Of a stretch of DNA of 32,000 nt, positions 15,930 through 29,098 are shown in pieces. The DNA lies in assembly GCF_900168135.1 (NCBI RefSeq), contig NZ_FUZD01000012.1:11834-43833 (forward strand), written 5' to 3'. How positions within the stretch are numbered: position 1 is the first letter of the stretch; each line of letters begins with the position of its first letter. This DNA comes from Arthrobacter sp. 49Tsu3.1M3. Its GTDB lineage: Bacteria; Actinomycetota; Actinomycetes; Actinomycetales; Micrococcaceae. The notes under the pieces were generated by a model. The model saw only the letters and a program-made list of their open reading frames with translations, was not told the DNA's origin and did no database searches. A program made the position numbers and the translations under genes.

Positions 15930-16679
15930 TCAGACCTTGTCGGCGCCGAAGGGGGTGACCACCGTGCGGCGGGGCGTCCCGGCGTCGTCGTAGTTCAGGG
16001 TGCTGACGCGGACGCCGTACAGCGCCGAAAGCTGCGCATCGGCGAGGAGCGGCCCGGCAGGCCCGGTCACCACACCCTCGGCGCCCATCAGGACCACCGA
16101 GTCCGCAAGGAACAGGGCGTGGTCCGGGTGATGGGTGCTGACGAGCAGGGACATCCCGGTCCGCACGAGTTCCCTCAGCAGCTGCAGGACCCGGACCTGG
16201 TTCTTCAGGTCCAGCCCGGTGGACGGCTCATCCAGGACGAGGAGCCGCGAACCGCCTGCAATAGCCCGTGCAATGAGGACCAGCTGCTGCTCGCCCCCGC
16301 TCAGCGTCGGAAACAGCCGGTCGGCCAGGGCGGCGATCCCCACCCGGTCCATGGCGTGGAGCGCGGCGGCCCTGTCCCGGCTGCCGGGGGAGCGGAAGAC
16401 GCCGATGTGGCGGGCACGGCCCATGACCACCATGTCCAGGGCCGGGTAGCCGAACGTGCTGCCGCGCGCCTGGGGAACATAGCCCGCCGTCTCGGACCTG
16501 CGCACCGCGCCCTCCCGCACGGCCAGCATGCCGGCCGCGCAGCGCACCAGGGTAGTTTTGCCGCTGCCGTTGGGCCCCAGGACCGCGGTTACGGTGCCCG
16601 GCGGCACCGAGAAGCTGAGATCCTTGAACACCCAATTCTGCGGTGAATAGCCGAAGCCGGCCCCGCGCAGCTCAAGCAC
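15930..16679 (-). CDS. ABC transporter ATP-binding protein (FepC/FecE/BtuD-like)
   Basis: Walker A GPNGSGKTT, signature LSGGEQQ, Walker B LLVLDEP and an H-loop (STHH). It overlaps the permease gene by 8 nt. Confidence 0.9.
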   Translation of the reverse strand: MLELRGAGFGYSPQNWVFKDLSFSVPPGTVTAVLGPNGSGKTTLVRCAAGMLAVREGAVRRSETAGYVPQARGSTFGYPALDMVVMGRARHIGVFRSPGSRDRAAALHAMDRVGIAALADRLFPTLSGGEQQLVLIARAIAGGSRLLVLDEPSTGLDLKNQVRVLQLLRELVRTGMSLLVSTHHPDHALFLADSVVLMGAEGVVTGPAGPLLADAQLSALYGVRVSTLNYDDAGTPRRTVVTPFGADKV

Positions 16680-17745
16680 CGTCCCAGATCCTCTCCCGGT
16701 TCCGGCGCAAGAGCACGAAGAAGACCGGTGCGCCGATCAGGGCGGTCAGGACGCCCAACGGGATTTCCCCGGCCGTGGCGGTGCGCGCGATGGTGTCGAT
16801 GGCGATCAGGTAGGCCCCGCCCAGCAGGAAGGAGACCGGCAGCAGCACCCGGTGGTCCGGTCCCACCCACATGCGTGCGAGGTGCGGGATGACCAGCCCC
16901 ACCCAGCTGATGACGCCGCTGACGGCGACGGCCCCGGCGACCATGAGGGCCACGGCGGCGAGGACCGCCCAGCGCAGGGGGCGCGGCCGGAGCCCCAGGG
17001 CGGTGGCGTCGTCGTCGCCGAGCGAGAGCACATTGATCCGCCACCGCAGGGCCAGCAGGACGACGCCGCCGGCAGCGATCGGAATGAGGGCCACCAGCAC
17101 TTTTGCCCAGGTGGCAGTGGAGACACTGCCAAGCAGCCAGAAAACGATGGCAGGCAAGGTGGTGAACGGGTCCGCCAGGTACGTCACCAGGGCCACCAGG
17201 GCGGAGAAGAACGAGGCCGTGACGATTCCTCCGAGGACCACCATGAGGATGTGGGCGCCGCCCCGTCCGGACGTGATGAGGAAGACGATTCCCAGTGCCA
17301 GCAGCCCGAAGCCGAACGATCCGCCCACGAGGGCGACGGGGCCCAGGCCCAGCAGCAGGGCCAGGGCGCCGCCGAAGGAGGCCCCCGAGGAGACACCGAT
17401 GACCTCCGGGCTGACCAGGGGGTTGCGGAACACGGCCTGCAGGGCCGCGCCACCGATGGCGAGGGCGCCACCGACCAGCAGGGCAAGCAGGACCCTGGGC
17501 AACCTGACCAGCAGCACCACGTTCTCCTCGGCCGCGGGAAGGCCCGGGCCGAAGGGAACTATTCGGGACGCCAGGATCTGCACGACATGGTCCAGGGACA
17601 CGCTGTAGCGGCCGCTGGCGAGTGCAACCGCCGACACGGCCGCCAGGACTGCTCCGGAGAGCAGGCATGGACCGATGACCTGGCGCAGCCGCGATCCCCG
17701 GCCGCCCGGGGGTCCCGTGGTCAGAGGCTGGGCCTCACGAAGCAT
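16672..17745 (-). CDS. FecCD-family ABC permease (iron-chelate/cobalamin type)
   Basis: 357-aa polytopic protein with typical FecCD/BtuC features (…RLPRVLLALLVGGALAIGGAALQAVFRNPLVSPEVIGVSSGA…). It overlaps the binding-protein gene by 11 nt. Confidence 0.9.
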   Translation of the reverse strand: MLREAQPLTTGPPGGRGSRLRQVIGPCLLSGAVLAAVSAVALASGRYSVSLDHVVQILASRIVPFGPGLPAAEENVVLLVRLPRVLLALLVGGALAIGGAALQAVFRNPLVSPEVIGVSSGASFGGALALLLGLGPVALVGGSFGFGLLALGIVFLITSGRGGAHILMVVLGGIVTASFFSALVALVTYLADPFTTLPAIVFWLLGSVSTATWAKVLVALIPIAAGGVVLLALRWRINVLSLGDDDATALGLRPRPLRWAVLAAVALMVAGAVAVSGVISWVGLVIPHLARMWVGPDHRVLLPVSFLLGGAYLIAIDTIARTATAGEIPLGVLTALIGAPVFFVLLRRNRERIWDGA

Positions 17746-18898
17746 CGAACTGCCGGTAGTTGGCCGAGGTGCCGTTGGCTTTGGTCCAGAGGATCTTGTC
17801 CAGCTCCGGCGCCGATGGCCGGTAGCGGTACAGGAAATCGAAGTAGTCGTTTGTCTCCTCCCTCAGCGTGGAGCGGTTGCCGGAGGGGAAACTGACATCT
17901 GTAAGCCAGCGCCACATCAGCGGCGATTCCTGGCCGGGGGGATCCCAGCGGTAGCCGCCCAGGGGGACCTTGTAGACGCGGCGGGAGCGCACGGCGGAAA
18001 CGCTTTGCCACACCGGGTTGGCGTAGACGTCGGCGGGCATCGCGTCATCGAAGTTCCCGAGCAGGATGATTTCCGGATCCCAGGCCAGGACCTGTTCGAC
18101 GTCCACGCCCACCATGCCCTTGCCCTGAAGGCCCTGCGGGCCGGTGGCGGGGTTGTGTGCCCCGATGAGCTTGATGTAGAAGTCGTTGTAGCTGCCGTTT
18201 CCGGCCACCTTGAGGCCGCCGTTGAATCTGTTGAAGTAGATGATGCCCGGCCCGCCTGTGCCGCGGGCGGCGGCCTCGGCCTGGATGGCCTTCTGCTGAC
18301 CGTCGCTGCGCGCCTTCATCTGCACGGCCCGGTCCGGGCGGCCCAGCATCGTAGCGAAAAGCGCGGTCCACGTGTCCACATCCTGCTGCGTACCGGTGTT
18401 CGTGATGCCAAGGACCTTCATCCCGGCCTGTTCCAGCGGTGCCGTCAGTTGCGCATCGCTCCACTGGACCACGACGTCGGGGTTCAGCGCCCGGATGCTT
18501 TCGACATTGGGTGTGAAGTCCGTCGTGGCAATGTCGTGCGGGATGTTCAGGGCCTCCGGGTACATGGTGCCCATGGCGCCGTCGCGCATGGCGACCCAGG
18601 AGGCGTTGTGCATCCCGGCGAGATGGCTGGCGCCCTGGTCGACGGCGGCCAGCAGGGAGGCGGCGGGCATGGGAATGGTCACCACCCGGGTGACCGGGCT
18701 GTCGAAACTCAGGACGGTCCCGCGCTGGTCCGTGACCTGGATCCCGGCCGCGCCGGAGGCGGAACCCGGGGGCGCAGTACCGCCAGTCCCTGCCGGCGGC
18801 GACGTGCCGGCCGGGGCGCAGGAAGCCAGGAACAGCGCCCCTCCGCCGTAGAGGGCCGCTGCCAGTACAGATCGTCGGTTGGCTTCGGGGATGCTCAT
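17735..18898 (-). CDS. ABC substrate-binding lipoprotein (periplasmic binding protein, FecB/BtuF class), probable Tat-exported
   Basis: The ATG at 18898 is preceded by GGGAGG. The N-terminus MSIPEANRRSVLAAALYGGGALFLASC has a twin-Arg and a lipobox (LASC), followed by a Gly/Pro/Thr/Ser linker. The 27 upstream codons of the track ORF were rejected. Confidence 0.85.
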   Translation of the reverse strand: MSIPEANRRSVLAAALYGGGALFLASCAPAGTSPPAGTGGTAPPGSASGAAGIQVTDQRGTVLSFDSPVTRVVTIPMPAASLLAAVDQGASHLAGMHNASWVAMRDGAMGTMYPEALNIPHDIATTDFTPNVESIRALNPDVVVQWSDAQLTAPLEQAGMKVLGITNTGTQQDVDTWTALFATMLGRPDRAVQMKARSDGQQKAIQAEAAARGTGGPGIIYFNRFNGGLKVAGNGSYNDFYIKLIGAHNPATGPQGLQGKGMVGVDVEQVLAWDPEIILLGNFDDAMPADVYANPVWQSVSAVRSRRVYKVPLGGYRWDPPGQESPLMWRWLTDVSFPSGNRSTLREETNDYFDFLYRYRPSAPELDKILWTKANGTSANYRQFDAS

Positions 18899-19093
18899 CG
18901 GCCTACCTCCCGGGAAGGACCGCGCGCAACGGCCATTCGCTCCGCGCCGGCAACGACAAGGATTCCGGCACGGCACTTCCTCACAGCATCTGCCGAATGC
19001 GCAGGGGTGTCAATGCCGATCACGCCGGGCATTGTTCGCCGACGGGCGCCGGTGCTAGCCTCGCTGATATCCCCTGTGAAACGAGGCCACGGG

Positions 19094-19864
19094 ATGGAAA
19101 TCAACGGCGCCCAACTGTTTGTCCGCTACGCATATCCACCAAATTCGCGGGGCAGCTGCGGGCCGCCTGACAGCGACGCGCTGCTGCACTATGGCCAGTC
19201 CGGGGTGACCGATGCGGGCCTGCGCGAACTGGCGAAGGGGTTCGCCGGCGCCTGGCCCTACCTGGAGCTCATCGCCGGTGCCACCGGCAACCCGGACCCA
19301 CTGGACTACGCGGTGGTGGAGGCCTACTGGGTGGGAAACACGCTGCTGGACTCCGTGGGTGTGCGCAGCATCGGCAATTCCATGGAGGACCGGTTCCGCG
19401 CACGGACCGGGCATCAGTTCCCGCACCTGATGGAAGGGGTCCTGGCCGGCGGCGTCCCGCATCACAGCTTCCACGTCCTGGAAATCTATCCGTGGACGGG
19501 ACTCTTGCGCGATGACCGGCGCTCATCCACGGCCCTGAACGTCCTTGACCAATGCCGCATCCGGTGGGGCGAGGTGGTGGCCGTCGAAGGGGACAGCGCA
19601 CTCGTGCGCTCGCGGCCCCTGGCGTGGGACGGCATGGCGCTGTCGCTGGGGGAACCGGTGATCGAGACGGCCCAGTACGCCGTGGCCGGGTCCGGCTTCA
19701 TCGCTGACCTCACGCCCGGGGACATGGTGTCCCTCCACTGGGACTGGGTGTGCGACCGGCTCGCGCCAGCCCAGCTCCACCGGCTCCAGCACTACTTTGC
19801 GCGCCACCTCAAGATCGCGAATTCCGGCGTGGAGCACCGCGGCGCCGCGATCGCCCTCGAATAG
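19094..19864 (+). CDS. conserved hypothetical protein, 256 aa (I vaguely associate the N-terminal motif FVRYAYPPN..G.CGP with a DUF family; unverified)
   Basis: Only the C-terminal 256 codons of the 729-aa track ORF have protein-like composition. They start MEINGAQLFVRYAYPPNSRGSCGPPDS. The upstream part is antisense to the ABC genes. Confidence 0.7.
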   Translation: MEINGAQLFVRYAYPPNSRGSCGPPDSDALLHYGQSGVTDAGLRELAKGFAGAWPYLELIAGATGNPDPLDYAVVEAYWVGNTLLDSVGVRSIGNSMEDRFRARTGHQFPHLMEGVLAGGVPHHSFHVLEIYPWTGLLRDDRRSSTALNVLDQCRIRWGEVVAVEGDSALVRSRPLAWDGMALSLGEPVIETAQYAVAGSGFIADLTPGDMVSLHWDWVCDRLAPAQLHRLQHYFARHLKIANSGVEHRGAAIALE

Positions 19865-19943: not shown

Positions 19944-20201
19944 CTACGGCGAGGTGTCGGTGGGGTCCTGGCCCCGTCCCATGAGCTCAAGTCCCGTCAT
20001 CGCACGGTCCGCACCATCCTGGTCCACGCGTTCCAGGGCGAAGCCCATGTGGATCAGGACCCACGTGCCGCTCTCCACGGGGCCGTCGTCGAGGAGGCCA
20101 ATGTTGATTTTGCGCTCCACTCCGGCCACATCCACGAGGGCGAGTTGCCCGTTGTAGCCATCGATCACTTCGATGATCCGGCCCGGTATTCCCAGACACA
20201 T
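19944..20201 (-). CDS. hypC: HypC/HupF-family hydrogenase assembly chaperone
   Basis: The canonical N-terminus MCLGIPGRIIEV (85 aa) is preceded by AAGGAGG. The longer 155-aa ORF was rejected. Confidence 0.9.
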   Translation of the reverse strand: MCLGIPGRIIEVIDGYNGQLALVDVAGVERKINIGLLDDGPVESGTWVLIHMGFALERVDQDGADRAMTGLELMGRGQDPTDTSP

Positions 20202-20214
20202 CCGTGGTTCCTCC

Positions 20215-20799
20215 TTAGCCTGCTTCATCCGGAGTCGCGCTCGCGGGCGCTGCGTCTGCGTTCGTGCTGCGGGCTGTGACCAGGGTGCGGACGGCTTCCA
20301 CGGCTGCCGGAACGGCGCGGGACACGTCCTCGGACAGTCCCATGCCCTCGTCCGTTCGCCCCGCGATGCAGCCGACCAGATAGGTCTCCGGCAGCGATCC
20401 GCCCAAAACACGCAGGCGGCGGAGGACAGCCAGCGGATCCATGCCGTGCGGATCGAAGGCCGGATTGGCCCGAAGCCCGGCCGGAGTCAGCGGACCGCCG
20501 CTTTCCAGGTCCTCCACCCGGATCTTCAGGATCCGGAGCGTTCCGGCGCTTGTGCTTCCGTCCGCCGGGGCCGGGAGCACATCCACGAGCACCAGCGCAT
20601 CCACTCCGTCCAGCAGGTCGTAGGCGAGGTGCAGCCCGCGGATCCCGTAGTCCCGCACCTGGACCTCCTCCGGCGCCCAGCCGGGCAGGCCGGACACCTC
20701 CTCGGCCAGCCGGCGGGCGACGGCCGGTCCAAATCCGTCGTCGCGGAGGAACACGTTCCCCACGCCCGCCACGAGAACCCCGCTCACACCGGGCCTCAC
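20215..20799 (-). CDS. hupD: [NiFe]-hydrogenase maturation endopeptidase (HupD/HyaD/HybD family)
   Basis: GVGNVFLRDDGFGPAV motif and a downstream HGMDP motif. The GTG start at 20799 overlaps the stop of the 39-aa ORF (ATGTGA). An alternative GTG lies 9 nt downstream. Confidence 0.8.
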   Translation of the reverse strand: MRPGVSGVLVAGVGNVFLRDDGFGPAVARRLAEEVSGLPGWAPEEVQVRDYGIRGLHLAYDLLDGVDALVLVDVLPAPADGSTSAGTLRILKIRVEDLESGGPLTPAGLRANPAFDPHGMDPLAVLRRLRVLGGSLPETYLVGCIAGRTDEGMGLSEDVSRAVPAAVEAVRTLVTARSTNADAAPASATPDEAG

Positions 20800-20915
20800 A
20801 TGCTCCGCATTCGCACGTAGCGCTTGATGTCCGGAATTGAACGCAGGCCGACGACGGCTGCTGCCAGGCCCGCGGCCAGCAAGAGCACGACTGTCATGAT
20901 GCCCAGAGCTTTCAT
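20796..20915 (-). CDS. 39-aa single-pass membrane peptide (MKALGIMTVVLLLAAGLAAAVVGLRSIPDIKRYVRMRSM)
   Basis: The start ATG overlaps the stop of the 517-aa ORF (ATGA) and its stop overlaps the protease GTG. One hydrophobic helix is followed by a basic tail. I recall a DUF-type small-protein family in such clusters; unverified. Confidence 0.6.
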   Translation of the reverse strand: MKALGIMTVVLLLAAGLAAAVVGLRSIPDIKRYVRMRSM

Positions 20916-22465
20916 GGTGATGGTTCCTTTCCGTTGTCCGGGGCCGGCGCCGCGGTGAGCGGCACGAGTTCCTCGGGGGCGAAATACAGATACCGTCCGT
21001 ACCACTCCTGCAGCTCGGCGGCGGGGTCGGCCTCGAGGACCACCGCGACGTGCGTTCCGCCGTCGACGTCGAAGTGGACTCCGGTGACACGCCCGGACTT
21101 GCCGGCGAAGAAGAGGTCCTGGGCGTCGGCGCGGCGCAGCGGGACAACCCGCACCCGGCTGCCGCGTGAGATCGGGACGCCGTCAATGAAGACGGTGTCC
21201 GATCCCGGATCGACGGCGGCGTCCCGGGCCGGATCCCACCACGGCGTGCCGGCACCGGTACCCGCCCCGGTACCTGATTCGGCGTCACCTGATTCGGCGT
21301 CGCCCGGAACTGAGAACTCCGGAACTGAAAACTCCGGATAGGCCGGGCCCGCGGGGCCGGGGAAGCCGTCGCCTCCGATGCTCCCGGGGCCGCGGGGCTC
21401 CGCCAGTTGCACGGCATCGTGCGGGTTCCGCAGGATGCCGTGCAACTGCTGGAGCTCCTCCGCCGTCATGTTTTCGCAGCGTTCGATGATCGCCGCGGCC
21501 CGGGCATCGGTTGACCGGGCCTCCGCCTTTTCCGCATCGGTCAGGGTGAGCACCCGCAGGGTCAGGATTTCATCGATCTCCGTGGCGTCGAACAGTTCCA
21601 CGGTGCTTTCCGGTGCCACCGCCGGATGGTCATAGAGGATGATCGGGGACAGGAGCAGGACATCGCGCTGCCCCTCGGGGCCGGCAAGGACGGGCCAGCA
21701 GCGGTGCTGGCTGCACGAGGCCGCCGCCGCTGCTGCCCATCCCGGGGGATCGATCACCGACAGGAAATCGGCGTCGTGGACGGCGAGCAGGACATGGGCC
21801 CCGATGAACGAGTACTCGATGGCGGAACGCGCGTCGGTGGTCGCTGCCGCCGCGTTCTCCACCGTGACCCTGAGCCGCCACAGCGGGCCGTGGGCCGGCC
21901 CGGCGGCGGCAGCGGCTTGGACCGCCGGCCCCGGCGGCGCCACTTGCGTCGCCATCAGGCGCACCTCGCCGCGAAGCTGCCGGCGCCGGCGCACAAGCCG
22001 GCCGGCGGTGGCGCCTGCGGAGTCCAGCACGGGCTCGATGTCCTCGTTCGCCGGTACGTTGACCGGCGCGCGCACGCCCGCGGCAAGCTGGCCGAGGCTG
22101 TATGGCCCGAGAGTGATCTCCTGATCCGTTGCCTCGTCCCAGCTAAGCCACCGGGAAGCGCCGACGGTGAGTTCGTCGACTGGGGCGAAACCGCCGTCAT
22201 CCGCGCGTTCGGCGGACCGTCTCTGGAGGTGCAGGAAGCGCAGATGCACGTCGACCCGGGCTGCGGGTCCCGGCTCGAGGAGGCAATCCGCTGCCATGTC
22301 CGGCGCTTCGCCGGCACCGGACTCATCCGCGCCCGGCGGCCCGAGCACCCCGAACTGCCAGCGGGCCTGGTTCTTGGCGGACGACGCGCGGTAGGGGTAC
22401 AGGAGGTACCCCTCGTAGAGGACGGCGTCGGCGACGGCGCGGGCCAGGCTGAGTCCGGTGTTCAC
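20912..22465 (-). CDS. conserved hypothetical protein, 517 aa, hydrogenase-operon encoded
   Basis: The GTG start at 22465 overlaps the upstream stop (GTGA). Composition is protein-like throughout (N-terminus …VLYEGYLLYPYRASSAKNQARWQFGVLGP…). An acidic/Gly linker precedes a C-terminal domain of about 90 aa. Confidence 0.8.
   Translation of the reverse strand: MNTGLSLARAVADAVLYEGYLLYPYRASSAKNQARWQFGVLGPPGADESGAGEAPDMAADCLLEPGPAARVDVHLRFLHLQRRSAERADDGGFAPVDELTVGASRWLSWDEATDQEITLGPYSLGQLAAGVRAPVNVPANEDIEPVLDSAGATAGRLVRRRRQLRGEVRLMATQVAPPGPAVQAAAAAGPAHGPLWRLRVTVENAAAATTDARSAIEYSFIGAHVLLAVHDADFLSVIDPPGWAAAAAASCSQHRCWPVLAGPEGQRDVLLLSPIILYDHPAVAPESTVELFDATEIDEILTLRVLTLTDAEKAEARSTDARAAAIIERCENMTAEELQQLHGILRNPHDAVQLAEPRGPGSIGGDGFPGPAGPAYPEFSVPEFSVPGDAESGDAESGTGAGTGAGTPWWDPARDAAVDPGSDTVFIDGVPISRGSRVRVVPLRRADAQDLFFAGKSGRVTGVHFDVDGGTHVAVVLEADPAAELQEWYGRYLYFAPEELVPLTAAPAPDNGKEPSP
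21251..21338 (-). repeat. three adjacent in-frame tandem duplications (12, 15, 15 bp) inside the 517-aa ORF linker
   Basis: ggcaccggtacc/cgccccggtacc; tgattcggcgtcacc/tgattcggcgtcgcc; cggaactgagaactc/cggaactgaaaactc. The encoded peptide is EFSVPEFSVPGDAESGDAESGTGAGTGAGT. Confidence 0.9.
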
Positions 22466-23103
22466 GGCACCGGGTCACCCGCCCCGGCCAGCAGCCCCTC
22501 GATGGCGGCCTCCCAGGAAATCAAGCCGTGGACCGCCTTGTACCTGGCCAGGGCCGCGAGGACGTCACGGTCGAGGCGGATCCATCCCTGGTTCGGGAAG
22601 AAGGCGTCCATCAGCGAGCGCCAGGCCGCCACGGGAAGGGCGTACCGCGTTTCCCGGTCCCAGGGAATCTGCTCGACGCCGAAGCCCGCCGCGCCACGCG
22701 TGAAGACCGTCCCGGAGAAGAGGAACTCCAGCGGGACCGTCCCGTCCCGCAGGGAGTTCAGGTATTTTGCCGCCGCGACCTCGAAGTCGAACGTGCAGGG
22801 CAGCGGCAGGTCAATGTCGACACTGTCCGCAAATCCCTGGACCAGGACGCCGCTGTGCATCCAGATGAAGGGCTTGAGCGTGGTGGGCCACCGTCCGCGG
22901 GTGCCGAAGAGTTCCAGCAGCCCGGCTTCCTCGTCGGCGTCGTAGCCGCGGCGCTGGGCCAGGATCCGCACCTGGCACCGCAGGGCCATGGCATGGACGG
23001 CGGTGCCGCTTTTCTCCTGGATCCGCAGGCGCGCGGTCAGCTGGGGTGCGGCGGCGTAGGCTTCCGGGGCGATGTCCAGCACACTGAATTCGAGCTCAAC
23101 CAT
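22462..23103 (-). CDS. conserved hypothetical protein, 213 aa, hydrogenase-operon encoded
   Basis: The ATG at 23103 is preceded by GGAGGG, and the protein starts MVELEFSVLDIAPEAY. It overlaps the upstream gene by 8 nt and the downstream gene by 4 nt. I recall a DUF6084-type annotation for such genes; unverified. Confidence 0.8.
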   Translation of the reverse strand: MVELEFSVLDIAPEAYAAAPQLTARLRIQEKSGTAVHAMALRCQVRILAQRRGYDADEEAGLLELFGTRGRWPTTLKPFIWMHSGVLVQGFADSVDIDLPLPCTFDFEVAAAKYLNSLRDGTVPLEFLFSGTVFTRGAAGFGVEQIPWDRETRYALPVAAWRSLMDAFFPNQGWIRLDRDVLAALARYKAVHGLISWEAAIEGLLAGAGDPVP

Positions 23104-23833
23104 GGCGTCCCTCCAGATCTGCCGCGGCGGCGCCCGGCCTGCTGCGGCGGCTGATCCGGTCGAAGAATCCCGCGAGCTCCTGGCGGGACTCCTGGCCGCC
23201 GTCGAAGCCCTTCCATACCCGCCGCAGGCGGCCCACCAGCTCATAGCACGCATCGATGGGGACCAGATGGCAGTCCGCCCGGTCCCGGTCGGGACCGGGG
23301 GCGCGGATCAGCAGGGCTTCCGTGTCGGGGGCGAGCACGGTGATGGCCGGGTTGGCCGCCTGGACCGACGCCCAGGCAGCAAGGGGAAGCTCGGACTCCG
23401 TGGCGCCCGCGGGGCTCGGGTAGAAAGCGGCCGTCCGGCCAAGGGCCGAGTTGAAGAAGAAGAATGCCAGCCCCACCGGGATTTCCAGCTCGTCCCACTG
23501 GGCCTGGCCGAGCTCGAAGGGCTCGAACGAGAGGTAGCGGTCCGGGACGGAGCGGTAGCGCAGATGGGCCGACGAGTCCGTGAACAGCAGATAGCAGGGG
23601 CGGCACGTGCACAGCAGGGAGCGGCTCTCCAGATCCACCACGTGCTGGTGGGCGTCCGGGATCGGCTCCGCGCACATCTCGCAGCGCTCGCCGGCAGGCT
23701 GGGCCGGGCGGGCGGAAGCTATCCGGCGGAGCACGGCGAGGGCCGACGCGCTGTTTCCGGCCCTGTTGTTTCCGGCCCTGATGTTTCCGGCGCTGCCGGC
23801 CGGCTGACTCCCGGTTCCCGACGGCGCCGTCAT
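23096..23833 (-). CDS. conserved hypothetical Cys-cluster protein, 245 aa, hydrogenase-operon encoded
   Basis: The ATG at 23833 gives MTAPSGTG…. It has a low-complexity N-terminus, then C51-x2-C54 … C75-x-C77-x2-C80 (RCEMCAEPIPDAHQHVVDLESRSLLCTCRPCYLLF). I recall a DUF5947-type annotation; unverified. Confidence 0.8.
   Translation of the reverse strand: MTAPSGTGSQPAGSAGNIRAGNNRAGNSASALAVLRRIASARPAQPAGERCEMCAEPIPDAHQHVVDLESRSLLCTCRPCYLLFTDSSAHLRYRSVPDRYLSFEPFELGQAQWDELEIPVGLAFFFFNSALGRTAAFYPSPAGATESELPLAAWASVQAANPAITVLAPDTEALLIRAPGPDRDRADCHLVPIDACYELVGRLRRVWKGFDGGQESRQELAGFFDRISRRSRPGAAAADLEGRHG
23753..23797 (-). repeat. 15-bp in-frame tandem repeat x3 (GTTTCCGGCCCTGTT-like) in the N-terminal region of the Cys-cluster protein
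   Basis: Units at 23753-23767, 23768-23782 and 23783-23797. They encode AGNIRAGNNRAGNS. Confidence 0.9.
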
Positions 23834-23876
23834 GCCCTGCTCCGTTCCCGTGCCGCGGCGTTCATGTGCCGGCACC

Positions 23877-24851
23877 TCACAGCGGGTCCGCGGTGGTGGG
23901 GACGGCCACGGAGGGAACACCGTCGCGGAGCAGCAGCGGGAGGGGATCAAGATGCAGCGCCTTGTCCTCGAGGCAGGCCCCGGCCTTCCGGACATCGAAG
24001 TGGCTGCGGCAGTGCGGGCAGCGCAACAGGCCGCCCCCCACAGGGGCAGCCAGCGCCCGCTGCAGCGAGGCGCCCGGCATGGAGTGGGTGCACCGCGGGC
24101 AGCGGTCCACAAACGCGTAGACGTCCGGGCCGATCCGGCACGTGAGCACCTCCACGCCCGCCACCAGGAAGCCCGCCACGGCTCCGGACTCCAGCTCAGC
24201 GAGGGCCGGGACCGCCTGCCACGTGCCTGAGGCAGGCGTGCCGGAGTCGGGGACGGCCCAGCCCGGCGCCGCACTGCGGGTGCCGCCGTCCGGCGGGGCG
24301 CCCAGCCCGTCCAGCCGCGAGCGCAGGGCTCCGACCGGGATGAGGGCCGGAACGGCGGCGGGAGCCGCCTCCTCCACTTCGATGCCGGTCACCTCGGGCG
24401 CCGCAGATTCGATCGCGTCCTCGACGGCGAGCTTCAGCGTCACTGACGACGACGGACAGCCCTGGCAGCTGCCCAGCAGCCGCAGCCGGACGACGCCTTC
24501 TTCGCTGATGCCGAGCAGTTCCACATCCCCGCCATGCGAGCCAAGGTAGGGCCGGACGGAGTCCAGGGCGCCGGCGACCCTGCCGGACAGGTCCACGGGG
24601 TGCAGCCCGTGGATCAGGAGCAGGCCTGACACCAACGGGTCGGACGTGAGGGCGGACACCGTTCCGGGCCCGAGCGCACCTTGCGAATCGAGCACGTGCA
24701 GGATCCGTTCCAGCCCGGCACCGTACAGCTCCGTCACCTGCCGGACCAGTTCCTCGGCCCGGTCCCGGGCCACCGGACCGCCGGAGCCCAGCACGTCCAG
24801 GAGGGAACTGATCCGTTCACCGGCCGAGCCCAACAGATTCTCCCGGTCCAT
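23877..24851 (-). CDS. hhyE: NifU-like / Rieske-type fusion iron-sulfur protein (HhyE-like putative electron-transfer partner)
   Basis: A NifU C-terminal-type motif LLGSCQGCPSSSVTLK sits in the N-terminal half. The C-terminal half carries CPRCTH (CxH) and CPHCRSH (CxxH), i.e. Rieske-type 2Fe-2S ligands. It lies 6 nt downstream of hhyL. Confidence 0.8.
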   Translation of the reverse strand: MDRENLLGSAGERISSLLDVLGSGGPVARDRAEELVRQVTELYGAGLERILHVLDSQGALGPGTVSALTSDPLVSGLLLIHGLHPVDLSGRVAGALDSVRPYLGSHGGDVELLGISEEGVVRLRLLGSCQGCPSSSVTLKLAVEDAIESAAPEVTGIEVEEAAPAAVPALIPVGALRSRLDGLGAPPDGGTRSAAPGWAVPDSGTPASGTWQAVPALAELESGAVAGFLVAGVEVLTCRIGPDVYAFVDRCPRCTHSMPGASLQRALAAPVGGGLLRCPHCRSHFDVRKAGACLEDKALHLDPLPLLLRDGVPSVAVPTTADPL

Positions 24852-24857
24852 GGCGGG

Positions 24858-26651
24858 CTACTCACCGGTGAGCGACTGCGTGGGGGAGTGCAGCAAGTCC
24901 AGCGTCTGCCCGTCGCCGAGGTACATGTGGACTCCGCACGGCAGGCAGGGGTCGAAGCTGCGGACGGTGCGCATGATGTCGATGCCCTTGAAATGATCGC
25001 GGTCGTTCTCCTCGAAGATGGGCTGGCCCTGCACGGCGTCCTCATACGGGCCCGGTGTTCCCTCGGAGTCGCGCGGGCTGGCGTTCCACGGCGTCGGCGG
25101 ATAGGGATGGTAGTTGGCGATCTTGCCGTCACGGATCACCATGTGGTGCGAGAGCACGCCGCGGACGGCTTCGGTGAAGCCGCAGCTGATGGCTTCCTCC
25201 GGCACCTCGAAGGACTCCCACGTCTTGGTGCGGCCGGCCCGGATCTCCTCGAGCGCCTTTTCGGCGAAGTGCAGTGCGGCGGCCGCCGCGTAGGCCTGGA
25301 AATAGGTCCGGGCGCGGTTCCGCTCCAGCGTGTTGCTCCACTGCGGGATCTTCCATTCCAGGGTCACCGGCCCCTTCAGCGCAGTCTTGGGGAGCTCGAT
25401 CTGGACGCTGCTGCCCGTTGACTTGAGGTAGCCGGTGTCCACGAAGCCGGCAAGGGCAGTCGACCAGAGCCGGGCCAGCGGGCCGCCGCCGGTATCCAGC
25501 GCCAGGTTGCTTTCGCCGTCATTCCACCGTGGGGACATCACCCAGCTGTACTTGTCCTCGAGGTCGCGCTTCTGCGGCCGCGGGTTGGTGTGCTGGTTCC
25601 AGGGGTGCCGGCGGTCCACCGGGTTGCCCAGCGGGTCGCGGGTGACGAACATTTCCTGGTCGCCCCAGTCCTCGTAGTAGGACGAGCCCAGCATGATCCG
25701 GATGCCCAGGTTGATGCGCACCAGGTCCGTGGTCACGAGTTTGCCGTCCACCACGACGCCGGGGGTGACGAACATCTTCCGGCCCCACTCCGTCATGTCC
25801 TTGTAGGCGAAATTGCAGAACTCCGGGTCCTGGAAAGACCCCCAGCAGCCCAGCAGGGTGCGCCGCAGCCCCACCTGCTCGTACCCGGGCAGGGCCGCAT
25901 AGAAGAAGTCGAAGAGGTCATCGTGCATCGGCACGACCTTCTTCATGAACTCCACGTACCGCATGAGCCGGGTGATGTAGTCCGTCATCAGCTGGATCGT
26001 CGCCACGGTGCCCACGCCGCCGGGGTAAAGCGTGGAGGGATGGACATGCCGGCCCTCCATCAGGCAGAACATTTCCCGGGTCATCCGGCTCACCTGCAGC
26101 GCCTCGCGGTAGAACTCCCCGGTAAACGGGTTCAGCGAGCGCATGATGTCCGCGATGGTGCGGTAGCCGTGCTCGGCGGCGTGCGGGGCCGGCGTGTTCT
26201 CGGCTTTGGCCAGTACCGACGGGTTGGTTTCGGAGACCATCTTCTCGCAATAGTCCACGCCGACGAGGTTCTCCTGGAAGATGTTGTGGTCGAACATGTA
26301 CTCGGCAGCCTCGCCCAGGTTGACGATCCATTCGCCGAGGTGGGGCGGCTTCACGCCGTAGGCCATGTTCTGCGCGTAACAGGAACACGTGGCGTGGTTG
26401 TCGCCGCAGATTCCGCAGATCCGGCTCGTGATGAAGTGCGCGTCCCGGGGGTCCTTGCCGCGCATGAAGATGGAATAGCCGCGGAAAATCGAGGACGTGC
26501 TGTGGCATTCCACCACTTGGTTGTTCTTGAAATCGACCTTGGTGTAGATGCCGAGGCTGCCGACGATCCGTGTGATCGGGTCCCAGGCCATCTCCACCAG
26601 GTTCTCGCCCGCGGTACCGTCCGCCGGGGGCATCGGAATCGTCGAAGTCAT
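24858..26651 (-). CDS. hhyL: [NiFe]-hydrogenase large subunit, group 1h (group 5) type
   Basis: L1 motif TSRICGICGDNH and L2 motif SFDPCLPCGVH. A 22-aa C-terminal extension (MYLGDGQTLDLLHSPTQSLTGE) would be removed by the endopeptidase. 597 aa. Confidence 0.95.
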   Translation of the reverse strand: MTSTIPMPPADGTAGENLVEMAWDPITRIVGSLGIYTKVDFKNNQVVECHSTSSIFRGYSIFMRGKDPRDAHFITSRICGICGDNHATCSCYAQNMAYGVKPPHLGEWIVNLGEAAEYMFDHNIFQENLVGVDYCEKMVSETNPSVLAKAENTPAPHAAEHGYRTIADIMRSLNPFTGEFYREALQVSRMTREMFCLMEGRHVHPSTLYPGGVGTVATIQLMTDYITRLMRYVEFMKKVVPMHDDLFDFFYAALPGYEQVGLRRTLLGCWGSFQDPEFCNFAYKDMTEWGRKMFVTPGVVVDGKLVTTDLVRINLGIRIMLGSSYYEDWGDQEMFVTRDPLGNPVDRRHPWNQHTNPRPQKRDLEDKYSWVMSPRWNDGESNLALDTGGGPLARLWSTALAGFVDTGYLKSTGSSVQIELPKTALKGPVTLEWKIPQWSNTLERNRARTYFQAYAAAAALHFAEKALEEIRAGRTKTWESFEVPEEAISCGFTEAVRGVLSHHMVIRDGKIANYHPYPPTPWNASPRDSEGTPGPYEDAVQGQPIFEENDRDHFKGIDIMRTVRSFDPCLPCGVHMYLGDGQTLDLLHSPTQSLTGE

Positions 26652-26676: not shown

Positions 26677-27735
26677 CTACCAGGTCCGCTTGGCGCCGGT
26701 CAGCAGATCATTACCGGGTTTGCGCCAGCGTGGTTCCTGGTCCAGCGTGTGCTTCGTGATGTTCCGCAGTGTCCTGATGGTCTTGCCGTACGGCATGACC
26801 GACGCAGTCGACAACTTGCCGCCGGGAGGTTCGTCCATGAACGGCATGAATTTGTCCGGGAAGCCCGGCATCGTGCAGCCGATGCAGATGCCGCCCACGT
26901 TGGGGCAGCCGCCGATTCCGTTCATCCAGCCGCGCTTGGGCACGTTGCACTTAACCACCGGTCCCCAGCAGCCGAGCTTGACGATGCACTTCGGGGACCC
27001 GTATTCGGTGGCGAAATCGCCCTGTTCGTAGTACCCCGCCCGGTCGCATCCCTCGTGCACCGTCTGGCCAAACAGCCAGGTCGGCCGGAGCGCCTCATCC
27101 AGGGGAATCATGGGGGCCTGTCCGGTGGCCTGGTACAGCAGATACGTCATGGTTTCGGACAGGTTGTCGGGCTGGATGGGGCAGCCCGGGACGCACACGA
27201 TCGGGATCCCGGCTTTGGAGCGCCAGTCATACCCGAGATAGTCGGGCACCCCCATGGCGCCGGTGGGGTTACCGGCCATGGCATGGATGCCGCCGTAGGT
27301 CGCACAGGTCCCGGCGGCGATGATCGCCGTCGCCTTGGGCGCCAGCCGGTCCAGCCACTCGCTGGTGGTGATCGGCTGTCCGGTGTCGAGGTTGTTGCCG
27401 AAGGCCGCCCAGTAGCCGCCCGCGGCGTGCAGCTTTTCATTCGGGATGGACCCCTCCACTACCAGCACAAACGGCTCCAGTTCGCCGCGGTCCGCCTTGC
27501 GGAACCACTCGAGGAAGTCGTCGGCGCCTTGCTGCGGGCCGCATTCGAAGTCGATCAGCGGCCAGTGCATGGCAATCTTGGGTAGTCCGGGGAGCGCCCC
27601 AAGGGCTATCTCCTCGACGCTGGGCTGGGTTGCCGCCGTCAGGGCCACGGAATCACCGTCGCAACTGAGTCCGGCGTTGATCCACAGCACGTGGATCAAG
27701 GTTTCTTCCGCTTTCAATGCAGTAGCTGTAGGCAT
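26677..27735 (-). CDS. hhyS: [NiFe]-hydrogenase small subunit, group 1h type
   Basis: Small-subunit Fe-S ligand pattern (…GLSCDGDS…, GTCATYGG, CPNVGGICIGCTMPGFPD). There is no twin-arginine signal peptide. 352 aa. Confidence 0.95.
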   Translation of the reverse strand: MPTATALKAEETLIHVLWINAGLSCDGDSVALTAATQPSVEEIALGALPGLPKIAMHWPLIDFECGPQQGADDFLEWFRKADRGELEPFVLVVEGSIPNEKLHAAGGYWAAFGNNLDTGQPITTSEWLDRLAPKATAIIAAGTCATYGGIHAMAGNPTGAMGVPDYLGYDWRSKAGIPIVCVPGCPIQPDNLSETMTYLLYQATGQAPMIPLDEALRPTWLFGQTVHEGCDRAGYYEQGDFATEYGSPKCIVKLGCWGPVVKCNVPKRGWMNGIGGCPNVGGICIGCTMPGFPDKFMPFMDEPPGGKLSTASVMPYGKTIRTLRNITKHTLDQEPRWRKPGNDLLTGAKRTW

Positions 27736-27791: not shown

Positions 27792-28766
27792 TCAAACGCG
27801 TAGTCCGCCGGAGCGCGGCGCACTCCCGGCGGCAGCCGCCGCCAGGTGGGGATTCTTCCGGATCCACTCCAGCCAGCCGTCCATGCCGTCGCCGGTGGTA
27901 GCTGACAGGGTCAGGACGTCGACGCCGGGATTCAGCAGGCGCGCCTGGCGCACGCAACGCTCGACGTCGAACTCCACATAGGGGAGCAGGTCTGCTTTGT
28001 TGATGATCACCAGGTCGGCAGCCAGGAACATGTGGGGGTATTTCTGCGGTTTGTCATCGCCCTCCGTAACTGAGATCACAACGACCCGGGCCGATTCGCC
28101 GAGGTCGAACAATGCCGGGCACACCAGGTTGCCCACGTTTTCGATGAAGAGTGTCGATCCGGGGACCGGATCCAGCGCGCCCAGCGCCCGCTGCAGCATC
28201 CCGGCATCCAGGTGGCAGCCTGCTCCGGTGTTGATCTGGATCACCGGCCGCCCGGTGGACCGGATCCTGTCGGCGTCCAGCGAGGTCTCCTGGTCCCCTT
28301 CGATCACACCAATGTCCAGCTCACCGGCAAGTTCCCTGATGGTCCGGACCAGGAGCGTGGTCTTGCCGGCCCCCGGGGAACTCATGACATTGAAGGCCTG
28401 GATGCCGCGGCCTTCCAGCCAACCCCGGTTCCGTGCGGCCAGGAGGTCGTTCTTGGCGAGAAGGTTCTCTTCCAGGGAGATGAGGGTCCGTCCGTCAGCC
28501 GCGGGGCTGGGCCCGGCGTCGGCTGTCCCGGGGGATTGGGGATGCTGATGGCCGTGCTCGTGCCCGTGCCCGTGATCGTGCTCGTGATCGTGCCCGTGAT
28601 CGTGATCGTGATTGTGATTGTGATTGTGCGGATGCCCGTGCTCGTGATCGTGATCGTGCGAATGTTCGTGCGGGGCCGCAGCGGCGGGCACGGTATCGTG
28701 CACAGTCCCGTCGAGGTCCGAAACCCTGGTGCCGGCGTCGTCGCCGCATCCGCACGTCGCACACAT
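27792..28766 (-). CDS. hypB: hydrogenase nickel-incorporation GTPase HypB with His-rich tract
   Basis: N-terminal MCATCGC (CxxCGC Ni site), Walker A SSPGAGKTTLL, and an ENVGNLVCP motif. Confidence 0.95.
   Translation of the reverse strand: MCATCGCGDDAGTRVSDLDGTVHDTVPAAAAPHEHSHDHDHEHGHPHNHNHNHDHDHGHDHEHDHGHGHEHGHQHPQSPGTADAGPSPAADGRTLISLEENLLAKNDLLAARNRGWLEGRGIQAFNVMSSPGAGKTTLLVRTIRELAGELDIGVIEGDQETSLDADRIRSTGRPVIQINTGAGCHLDAGMLQRALGALDPVPGSTLFIENVGNLVCPALFDLGESARVVVISVTEGDDKPQKYPHMFLAADLVIINKADLLPYVEFDVERCVRQARLLNPGVDVLTLSATTGDGMDGWLEWIRKNPHLAAAAAGSAPRSGGLRV
28542..28670 (-). repeat. strictly alternating His-X tract (22 His in 43 residues) in HypB; DNA is a degenerate 6-bp repeat
   Basis: HEHSHDHDHEHGHPHNHNHNHDHDHGHDHEHDHGHGHEHGHQH, read from the translation. 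Confidence 0.9.
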
Positions 28767-28768
28767 GT

Positions 28769-29098
28769 CTACGCAACCTCCACCGAGGTGACCAGGAGTT
28801 CCCGGCCACTGACGACTTCGACATCGGCACTGCCGCAGGGGCAGAGCAGAAACATGTCCTCAAGGACGAACTCGTCGTGGCAGCTGCGGCATCTGGCCCG
28901 GCCCTCGGATTCATCGATCGTCAGGGTTGCCCCGGCCAGCGGCGTGTCAGCTGAAACGACTTCGAAGCAAAAGCGCACGGCATCCGGGAGGACGCCGCTC
29001 AAGGGTCCGATCCGCAGGTTGACGCCCGTCACGGAGCGGCCACCGGTCCGGTCCAGGACCGCCTCCACAAGACTTTGCGTGATCGAAAGTTCGTGCAT
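28769..29098 (-). CDS. hypA: hydrogenase nickel insertion protein HypA
   Basis: N-terminal MHE Ni-binding motif and a zinc site CRSC…CPC. 109 aa. GAGGTGG lies 9 nt upstream of the ATG, and the gene ends 2 nt before hypB. Confidence 0.9.
   Translation of the reverse strand: MHELSITQSLVEAVLDRTGGRSVTGVNLRIGPLSGVLPDAVRFCFEVVSADTPLAGATLTIDESEGRARCRSCHDEFVLEDMFLLCPCGSADVEVVSGRELLVTSVEVA

Follow-up and report, generated by a model that had tools for sequence, protein, structure and literature searches.

Four conserved accessory proteins of a group 1h [NiFe]-hydrogenase operon in Arthrobacter: candidates for a membrane-held assembly platform

A window of 32,000 nucleotides (nt) from Arthrobacter sp. 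49Tsu3.1M3 (contig NZ_FUZD01000012.1, positions 11,834 to 43,833) carries an operon for a group 1h [NiFe]-hydrogenase. Between hhyE and the maturation endopeptidase gene lie four minus-strand open reading frames (ORFs A to D) of 245, 213, 517 and 39 amino acids (aa), at the coordinates that a sequence-only reading of this DNA had given. The block is almost certainly the Arthrobacter copy of a group 1h-specific accessory set made up of DUF5947 (PHG067), DUF6084 (PHG068), the PHG069 family and DUF6893 (PHG071). Natural fusions of three kinds, HhyE-A, B-C and C-endopeptidase, involve its members. We tentatively favour the view that HhyE, A, B, C and the HupD-type endopeptidase would act as an assembly/maturation platform for group 1h enzymes, held at the membrane by D.

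Group 1h hydrogenases are a main route of the soil sink for atmospheric H2. Two puzzles surround this cytosolic, O2-insensitive enzyme, which has no twin-arginine translocation (Tat) leader: how its assembly proceeds in air and how it connects to the membrane. The four proteins are obvious unexplored candidates for both steps.

A group 1h accessory set with conserved gene order and natural fusions

The assignment of the operon to group 1h, made earlier from the sequence, was borne out. HhyL carries the L1 and L2 signatures of this group (TSRICGICGDNH and SFDPCLPCGVH) as quoted in PMC5364354, and HhyS is devoid of a twin-arginine leader. The sole strong match of HhyL in the PDB is HofG of 5AA5 (5AA5_C, 1064 bits). 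This was the only group 1h entry found in the PDB, and its source organism, C. necator, encodes all four accessory proteins. No PDB chain homologous to A, B or C was recovered in sequence searches, 5AA5 included. Thus the three proteins are absent from the only solved 1h enzyme; the membrane-extracted enzyme is not solved. In HhyE, the Pfam NifU domain was matched with E=4.4e-22 and the Rieske domain below threshold. HhyE is needed for Hhy activity according to PMC6883350. The length of HhyE varies among the loci. It is 324 aa in Actinobacteria, where the NifU domain is followed by the Rieske-like part; the HhyE of Proteobacteria and of some metagenome lineages has about 175-190 aa and only the NifU domain (L081 7112-7690, L082 7180-7704, L085 3721-4278).

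Pfam searches placed ORF A in DUF5947 (PF19372; E=3.7e-73, 245.4 bits against a cut-off of 25, model positions 1-176 of 177), ORF B in DUF6084 (PF19562; E=1.6e-90, 302.7 bits against 25, positions 1-209 of 213) and ORF D in DUF6893 (PF21833; E=3e-14, 53.2 bits against 24.6). For ORF C, one search returned at least 7,975 homologues at E<=1e-5, every one named 'hypothetical', and at least 3,785 representatives of 50%-identity clusters belong to the family at E<=1e-3. Its identity to a protein of Arthrobacter sp. 131MFCol6.1 is 91%. All four have counterparts on pHG1, the megaplasmid of C. necator H16. ORF A is 44% identical to the DUF5947 gene product of pHG1, ORF B 41% identical to that of the DUF6084 gene, and ORF C 33-34% identical to PHG069 over residues 10-503 (about 96% of its length; E=2e-41 to 9e-64). 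The counterpart of D is the annotated 33-aa PHG071, whose relatives bear the NCBI name 'DUF6893 family small protein'. The numbers PHG067, PHG068 and PHG069 were assigned from gene order.

The same families in the same order are represented by PHG067-069 with PHG071, by MSMEG_2717, for which homology with PHG067 has been reported, together with its downstream genes, and by HhaA, HhaB and HhaC of T. roseum. The name hhaABC is used in bioRxiv 457697, and its correspondence to A, B and C is our inference. The lineages differ in two respects: in Actinobacteria D precedes the protease and HhyE has the Rieske-like extension, whereas in Proteobacteria D follows the protease and HhyE consists of NifU only. 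The function of these proteins is still called unknown (PMC5900883, PMC6883350, PMC4377017). A literature search with the DUF names retrieved nothing relevant, and no cryo-EM paper on Hhy was found. The sequence-only reading had presented the block as undescribed biology. This does not hold, because three Pfam DUFs and the PHG069 family are already catalogued as conserved hypotheticals; the four ORFs are therefore a rediscovery of a known unknown. Its statement that the ORFs are of unknown function and fall in no known Hyp family is upheld by Pfam, NCBIfam and the literature. The results that are new here are the chain of fusions, the near-universal presence of D with its phylum-dependent position, a Cys/His set in A on an unmatched fold, and the domain plan of C. 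They sharpen the experiments to be done and do not settle the mechanism.

To assess gene order, relatives of C were scanned with one genome per species. Among the 590 relatives found, the best 80 loci were taken; nearly all are labelled Actinomycetota, and one metagenome-assembled genome (MAG) is labelled Sericytochromatia. The order hypB-hhyS-hhyL-hhyE-A-B-C-D-protease-hypC is kept in 80/80 loci as far as the contig reaches. The order A-B-C-protease-D is seen in C. necator pHG1, in Methylocystis and on metagenome contigs. On pHG1 the string reads hofK-hofG-NifU-DUF5947-DUF6084-(C homologue)-protease, with an 8-nt A/B and a 4-nt B/C overlap as in the window. Adjacency to hhyS/hhyL was found at all 80 genome loci (contig permitting), at three plasmid loci (C. 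necator, Methylocystis and M. intracellulare, inspected out of 13 matching plasmid records) and on four metagenome contigs. A and C occur together in 13/13 of the plasmid records and A, B and C in 11/13. The proposed phylogenetic co-occurrence with group 1h genes holds at these loci. The converse reportedly fails: M. fumariolicum SolV has an active 1h enzyme and is reported to be without homologues of these proteins (PMC7174314).

The chain of overlapping frames was confirmed by reading the sequence. A and B overlap by 8 nt (ATGGTTGA, 23096-23103), B and C by GTGA (22462-22465) and C and D by ATGA (20912-20915). The ATGTGA at 20796-20801, given earlier as the fourth link, does lie at the junction of D with the endopeptidase gene; its ATG is the final codon of D (Met39) and not a start. 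Start/stop overlap by itself is common in high-GC operons. The weight of the coupling evidence lies in the conservation of the overlaps across phyla. The A/B overlap is 4 or 8 nt in 51/61 loci, the B/C overlap is 4 nt in 65/81 loci, and all lineages examined show translational coupling of D with either C or the protease.

One plasmid departs from this order. On pSCAT of S. cattleyicolor (L083, NC_016113.1 555000-578000) the genes are rearranged as protease-hypB-C-hhyS-hhyL-short hhyE-A, followed by cytochrome oxidase genes. A and C are kept in this locus, and B and D were not detected in it. It is a natural test case for dispensable members of the set.

Fusions were sought by scanning the long members of the 150 best C-family representatives against Pfam. 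In seven representatives of 606-682 aa, with mutual identity below 50%, a complete C is followed end-to-end by the HycI endopeptidase. Four of the seven were seen again, unchanged in length, in a further sequence or contig, among these an Acidimicrobiaceae MAG; the other three are unconfirmed singletons (P0408, P0456, P0467). A B-C fusion of 765 aa, with DUF6084 N-terminal to C, has 28 members, drawn from four sources, in its cluster at 90% identity, and at least 12 of the 15 members listed are 765 aa long. HhyE and A are joined in a 375-aa protein with 22 cluster members, in which an HhyE-like domain is followed by DUF5947. The N-terminus of this protein is 33% identical (E=1e-14) to the NifU-like part of the window HhyE. 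On contig L087 the order is hhyS-hhyL-HhyE-like-DUF5947-DUF6084-[C-HycI]-DUF6893, and on contig L088 it is hhyS-hhyL-[375-aa protein]-[DUF6084-C]-HycI-DUF6893. It was considered that the fusions might be artefacts of using the longest sequence of a cluster as its representative. This was mostly rejected, because fusions of the same length come from independent contigs and sources and a separate protease gene is lacking on L087. The fusions point to concrete pairings that can be tested: HhyE-A, B-C and C-endopeptidase. The CxxC of NifU is apparently lost in the HhyE-A fusion of L088.

Features of the four proteins

The sequence-only reading had stated that none of the ORFs carries a motif of a known Hyp factor. 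This is true for Pfam and NCBIfam, but ORF A does contain a nearly invariant Cys/His cluster. C51, C54, H62, H64, C75, C77, C80 and C196 are each conserved in at least 97% of 61 homologues, Alpha- and Betaproteobacteria included. From their pattern, these eight residues are candidate metal ligands and could suffice for two tetrahedral sites or one cluster. No Fe-S or rubredoxin family was matched by A in Pfam or NCBIfam. The AlphaFold2 (AF2) model of A has a mean predicted local distance difference test (pLDDT) score of 74.5, and the C-terminal α/β part reaches 83-95 across most of residues 100-240. A Foldseek comparison of the A model with the PDB gave nothing significant (best E 0.1); the Cys region gave a weak match to a ZZ zinc-finger fold (2fc7, probability 0.33). 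PMC6883350 cites a proposal that PHG067 is the electron acceptor of the C. necator enzyme.

In Pfam, NCBIfam and PDB sequence searches, A to D showed no match to HypA-F, HupH/HyaF, HyaE or the rubredoxin HoxR. No Hyp, Hup or Hox maturation factor was present among the Foldseek PDB matches of the A and C models. ORF B has no sequence relative in the PDB. Paralogy between B and the β-domain of C was considered and rejected, as no pairing of the three proteins A, B and C reached a probability of 2% in hhalign.

ORF C is a multi-domain protein (segments in the table). Its AF2 model has a mean pLDDT of 64. The core scores mostly 82-96, apart from a block at residues 181-190 (62), and its last 20 residues score 68-84. 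The length of the linker varies widely across the alignment. Residues 261-348 are near-invariant and are modelled at low confidence. Low monomer confidence in the most conserved segments fits folding that depends on a partner. The C-terminal β-barrel matches PetP of the cytochrome b6f complex in Foldseek (2n5u and 7r0w_V; probability 1.0, target template modelling (TM) score 0.66-0.77) and gave a weak phmmer match to CarS. PetP, an SH3-fold peripheral subunit of the cyanobacterial complex, is a small β-barrel docked to the cytoplasmic side of a membrane complex. The likeness extends over only about 70 residues at 21-22% identity, and the fold is generic, phage proteins matching equally well; no homology is claimed. 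In the BFVD fold search only generic small β-barrels were recovered for C, many of them small phage proteins.

Other candidate relationships of C were set aside. A fold match to DrmA (E=3e-4) was left uninterpreted in view of its TM score of 0.18 and root-mean-square deviation of 20 Å, and the lectin and viral glycoprotein matches in the PDB had negligible probability. The helical segment gave matches to Phage_TAC_7 (PF10109) below threshold (best 20 bits against a cut-off of 25) and is kept as a lead only. Such sub-threshold matches were seen at residues 293-342 in 16/22 homologues; they are not independent of each other, because the segment is nearly invariant.

ORF D is probably, as judged from its composition, a single-pass membrane helix with a cytoplasmic basic tail. 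The hydrophobic helix covers residues 4-24 (bases 20844-20906) and the basic tail is RSIPDIKRYVRMRSM (bases 20799-20843). The maximum Kyte-Doolittle value over 19 residues is 2.6 and the isoelectric point is 11.6, whereas A to C are acidic. D follows the pattern M..(V/I/L)G, hydrophobic stretch, (R)S(I/L/V)PD..RY(L)(K)(I/M)R.M. A 39-aa ORF is present between C and the protease in 78/79 loci. A version of 32-34 aa lies just after the protease in Proteobacteria and several metagenome lineages; the proteobacterial form has a hydrophobic stretch of only about 16-18 residues. Counting both versions, a D-like ORF was found in 85/86 loci, the exception being S. cattleyicolor pSCAT. The search criterion for D-like ORFs was D..RY, so its invariance is not independent evidence; a terminal Met was not required. 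That Met is nevertheless present in 84/84 regex matches (20799-20801 in the window), whatever the next gene or its distance. It is a constraint at the protein level.

The idea that D is absent where the enzyme is soluble, as in C. necator, was discarded, since the 33-aa PHG071 sits after the protease in pHG1. D likewise follows the protease in Methylocystis and in L085-L088. DUF6893 genes seem to be often missed by gene callers. The PLSDB table for the M. intracellulare plasmid, known to be incomplete, omits the D gene (L084 9335-9454), which is also uncalled on a Casimicrobiaceae MAG contig (L086 9929-10030). CydX of cytochrome bd is a single-helix microprotein of a respiratory complex. CydX-like microproteins resemble D in size (33-39 aa), in having one hydrophobic helix, in lying inside a respiratory-enzyme operon and in being easily missed by gene callers; they show no sequence relation to D. 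The near-universal D offers a specific candidate for contact with the membrane.

Outside the Actinobacteria, a YceI-like gene comes after the DUF6893 gene of 1h loci, either next to it or one gene further on (L085 8710-9279; L087 9044-9565; L088 10084-10596). PadR-YceI genes were also seen (L087 11641-12690, L088 1576-2772). A Pfam re-scan of the YceI copy of L088 gave no match at E<=0.1, and the YceI label comes from the precomputed table only. No YceI-like gene was present among the window ORFs scanned. Proteins of the YceI family bind polyisoprenoids, which offers a lead for quinone handling beside the microprotein.

Possible roles of the block

Assembly, tethering and electron relay had all been put forward for the block from the sequence. 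Assembly is the best supported of these, by the C-endopeptidase and HhyE-A fusions; tethering and relay draw on the probable membrane helix of D and the metal-binding motif of A. HupD is the established maturation enzyme of the large subunit, an endopeptidase that processes the nickel-loaded protein. Fusions to an endopeptidase of this type and to HhyE, both of understood role, together with the lack of any PDB homologue, lead us to prefer, with reservation, the assembly platform. From the observed family membership, synteny, coupling, fusions, motif and fold classes we infer the formation of a complex, its clients, its metal and its membrane topology. A, B and C would be made in fixed order from coupled frames and would join in one complex. 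A would contribute a Cys/His-ligated metal site beside the NifU-like HhyE, for Fe-S loading of HhyS or its protection in air. As a multi-domain scaffold, C would carry the endopeptidase to the nickel-loaded precursor of HhyL and pass on the processed subunits. Through its hydrophobic helix and basic tail, D would hold the platform against the membrane's inner face. The platform would leave the finished HhySL or bind it only loosely.

There is a parallel among the O2-tolerant membrane-bound hydrogenases. HoxL/O/Q/R/T/V of R. eutropha and HyaE/HyaF of E. coli are isoenzyme-specific helpers whose operon genes stand between the structural genes and the hyp genes. Their targets are precursor subunits, and they do not remain in the purified enzyme; one of them is the Cys-rich, rubredoxin-like HoxR. 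No sequence or fold similarity of A to D to these helpers was detected (Pfam and NCBIfam; Foldseek PDB for A and C). Unlike Tat-exported hydrogenases, the 1h enzyme has no Tat leader on its small subunit for HoxO/Q-type chaperones to bind. By analogy, the platform would be the functional counterpart of the Hox/Hya helpers for a Tat-less enzyme. Knowing the helpers would aid production of 1h enzymes in other hosts as air-stable H2 catalysts.

Several points weigh against an assembly platform. Fusions of overlapping neighbours show a functional link and not which function it is. In T. roseum, hhaABC is reported to belong to the structural operon and not to the maturation operon (bioRxiv 457697). 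The active 1h enzyme of SolV, reported without homologues (PMC7174314), implies that maturation does not everywhere require the set. Why a maturation platform should have a membrane helix is not obvious. The Hhy enzyme of M. smegmatis is tightly membrane-bound though HhyS and HhyL have no transmembrane segment (bioRxiv 769216), and a stable anchor would directly explain this. The AF2 models of C and A are of moderate quality.

The membrane is central to another explanation, in which A, B, C and D stay on the mature HhySL/HhyE as a stable tether and electron relay. D would be the membrane anchor, C a flexible adaptor whose SH3-like domain docks in the manner of PetP, and the Fe-S or rubredoxin-like centre of A would pass electrons towards menaquinone. 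We regard this main rival as credible but less likely. The strongly hydrophobic helix and conserved basic tail of D in 85/86 loci, the Cys/His cluster of A, the PetP-like domain of C and the electron-acceptor proposal for PHG067 all speak for it. So does the M. smegmatis enzyme, which is found only in the membrane fraction and resists 5% cholate (bioRxiv 769216). Further, T. roseum hhaABC is located and induced with the structural genes (bioRxiv 457697), and the SolV operon, reported without homologues, encodes two membrane proteins instead (PMC7174314). There is also a precedent in HucM, a small scaffold encoded with the structural genes, as D is, which tethers the group 2a hydrogenase Huc to the membrane and explains its membrane association, the catalytic subunits having no transmembrane segments (PMC10017518). 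HucM is, however, an amphipathic coiled-coil tube that co-purifies with Huc; A to D show no homology to it, D is instead one hydrophobic helix, and A to C are not part of the solved 1h enzyme. A permanent subunit is hard to reconcile with the joining of C to the endopeptidase in seven diverged lineages. The C. necator enzyme is described as cytoplasmic (PMC4377017) despite all four proteins being encoded, and the only solved 1h structure is without any homologue. Pfam and NCBIfam place A in none of the known Fe-S or rubredoxin families, and its sole fold hint is the weak zinc-finger match. A bolder and somewhat less likely form would make the block the missing membrane/quinone coupling device of the 1h hydrogenase and the counterpart of HucM: D would anchor a complex scaffolded by C, and A, with its structurally unmatched fold, would carry a new type of Cys/His redox centre relaying electrons from HhyS/HhyE to menaquinone. 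If so, the endopeptidase-fused versions would reflect assembly on the same scaffold.

It may also be asked whether the four proteins act as one unit. Two groups of fusions can be distinguished, HhyE-A and, apart from it, B-C with C-protease; pSCAT of S. cattleyicolor keeps A by hhyE and C elsewhere in the locus, B and D going undetected; and A, B and C show no homology among themselves by profile comparison. These observations would agree with two modules travelling together: A with HhyE as a redox or metal partner, for electron transfer or Fe-S/Ni handling, and B, C and D with the protease as a chaperone and anchoring unit. Such a division appears improbable, since the A/B junction is overlapped as tightly and as widely as the B/C junction and the plasmid records keep A, B and C, or at least A and C, together. 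The notion that the frames are chance ORFs or unrelated hitch-hikers with no role in the hydrogenase is refuted. Long spurious ORFs are common in DNA of 68-72% G+C, with many in the window, and a 39-aa ORF could easily arise at random; but the Pfam matches are strong and the homologues number thousands, the synteny with hhySL is invariant across phyla, the frames are fused to hydrogenase proteins, and D is conserved in all loci but one.

Gene string and surroundings in the window

The G+C content of the window is 63-72%. The hydrogenase genes and the segments of A and C are listed below.

Table. Features of the hydrogenase gene string and of ORFs A and C (positions are those of the window).
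Feature	Position	Strand	Description
hypA	28769-29098	-	Pfam HypA; head of gene string
hypB	27792-28766	-	Pfam cobW/HypB
hhyS	26677-27735	-	group 1h [NiFe]-hydrogenase subunit; Pfam and NCBIfam
hhyL	24858-26651	-	group 1h [NiFe]-hydrogenase subunit; Pfam and NCBIfam
hhyE	23877-24851	-	NifU-like domain and Rieske-like C-terminal part; directly upstream of A
ORF A, 245 aa	23096-23833	-	DUF5947; PHG067 homologue
A, Cys/His cluster	23594-23683	-	C51-x2-C54-x7-H62-x-H64-x10-C75-x-C77-x2-C80
ORF B, 213 aa	22462-23103	-	DUF6084; PHG068 homologue
ORF C, 517 aa, GTG start	20912-22465	-	no Pfam family; PHG069 homologue
C, residues 1-45	22331-22465	-	near-invariant N-terminal segment (…EGYLLYPYRAS..KNQ.RWQFG.LGP); AF2 low confidence
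C, residues ~50-260	21686-22318	-	β-rich, sandwich-like core; mostly strands in AF2 model
C, residues 261-348	21422-21685	-	most conserved segment (SPIILYDHPAVAPES…TEIDEILTLRVLTLTDEEKAEAR.TD…LHG.LR.P), predicted helical
C, residues 349-408	21242-21421	-	variable low-complexity Pro/Gly/Glu linker; column identity 0.05; pLDDT <50
C, residues 409-505	20951-21241	-	small SH3-like β-barrel, PetP-like
ORF D, 39 aa	20796-20915	-	DUF6893; PHG071 homologue
Maturation endopeptidase, HupD/HycI type	20215-20799	-	TIGR00072 E=2.1e-27; Pfam HycI
hypC	19944-20201	-	Pfam HupF_HypC E=1e-21; last gene of string

Two starts can be read for the endopeptidase. GTG at 20797-20799 gives a 4-nt GTGA overlap with D, and the next in-frame GTG, at 20785-20787, leaves a gap of 8 nt after D. 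The second is favoured by comparison with homologues (MSGVLVAGVGN here and MSGILVAGIGN in C. necator). The start of ORF A is uncertain: an alternative in-frame ATG lies at 23863, and conservation is seen only from about residue 30 on. G+C at third codon positions is 0.83-0.88 in A to C, as expected for genuine coding frames of this genome.

An Rfam scan of the window yielded no non-coding features, and a scan for promoters and terminators gave hits at chance level only. HypB contains a long His/Asp-rich N-terminal stretch, HEHSHDHDHEHGHPHNHNHNHDHDHGHDHEHDHGHGHEHGH, presumably a nickel store. A terminator-like pattern at 28582-28611 is due to the repetitive DNA of this stretch.

A DUF6390 gene (19094-19864, plus strand; Pfam E=4.9e-90) is convergent with hypC. 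Homologues of DUF6390 lie downstream of the hhy block in 62 fetched loci, mostly on the operon strand among those listed. The DUF6390 protein is a fifth hydrogenase-linked protein without an assigned function, beyond the four ORFs. The hydrogenase cluster is adjoined by an ABC transporter (15930-18976, minus strand) consisting of an ATPase and a permease, both assigned by sequence only, and a binding protein of the Peripla_BP_2 family (Pfam), of the iron-siderophore/cobalamin type. To judge by these assignments, the transporter may supply metal.

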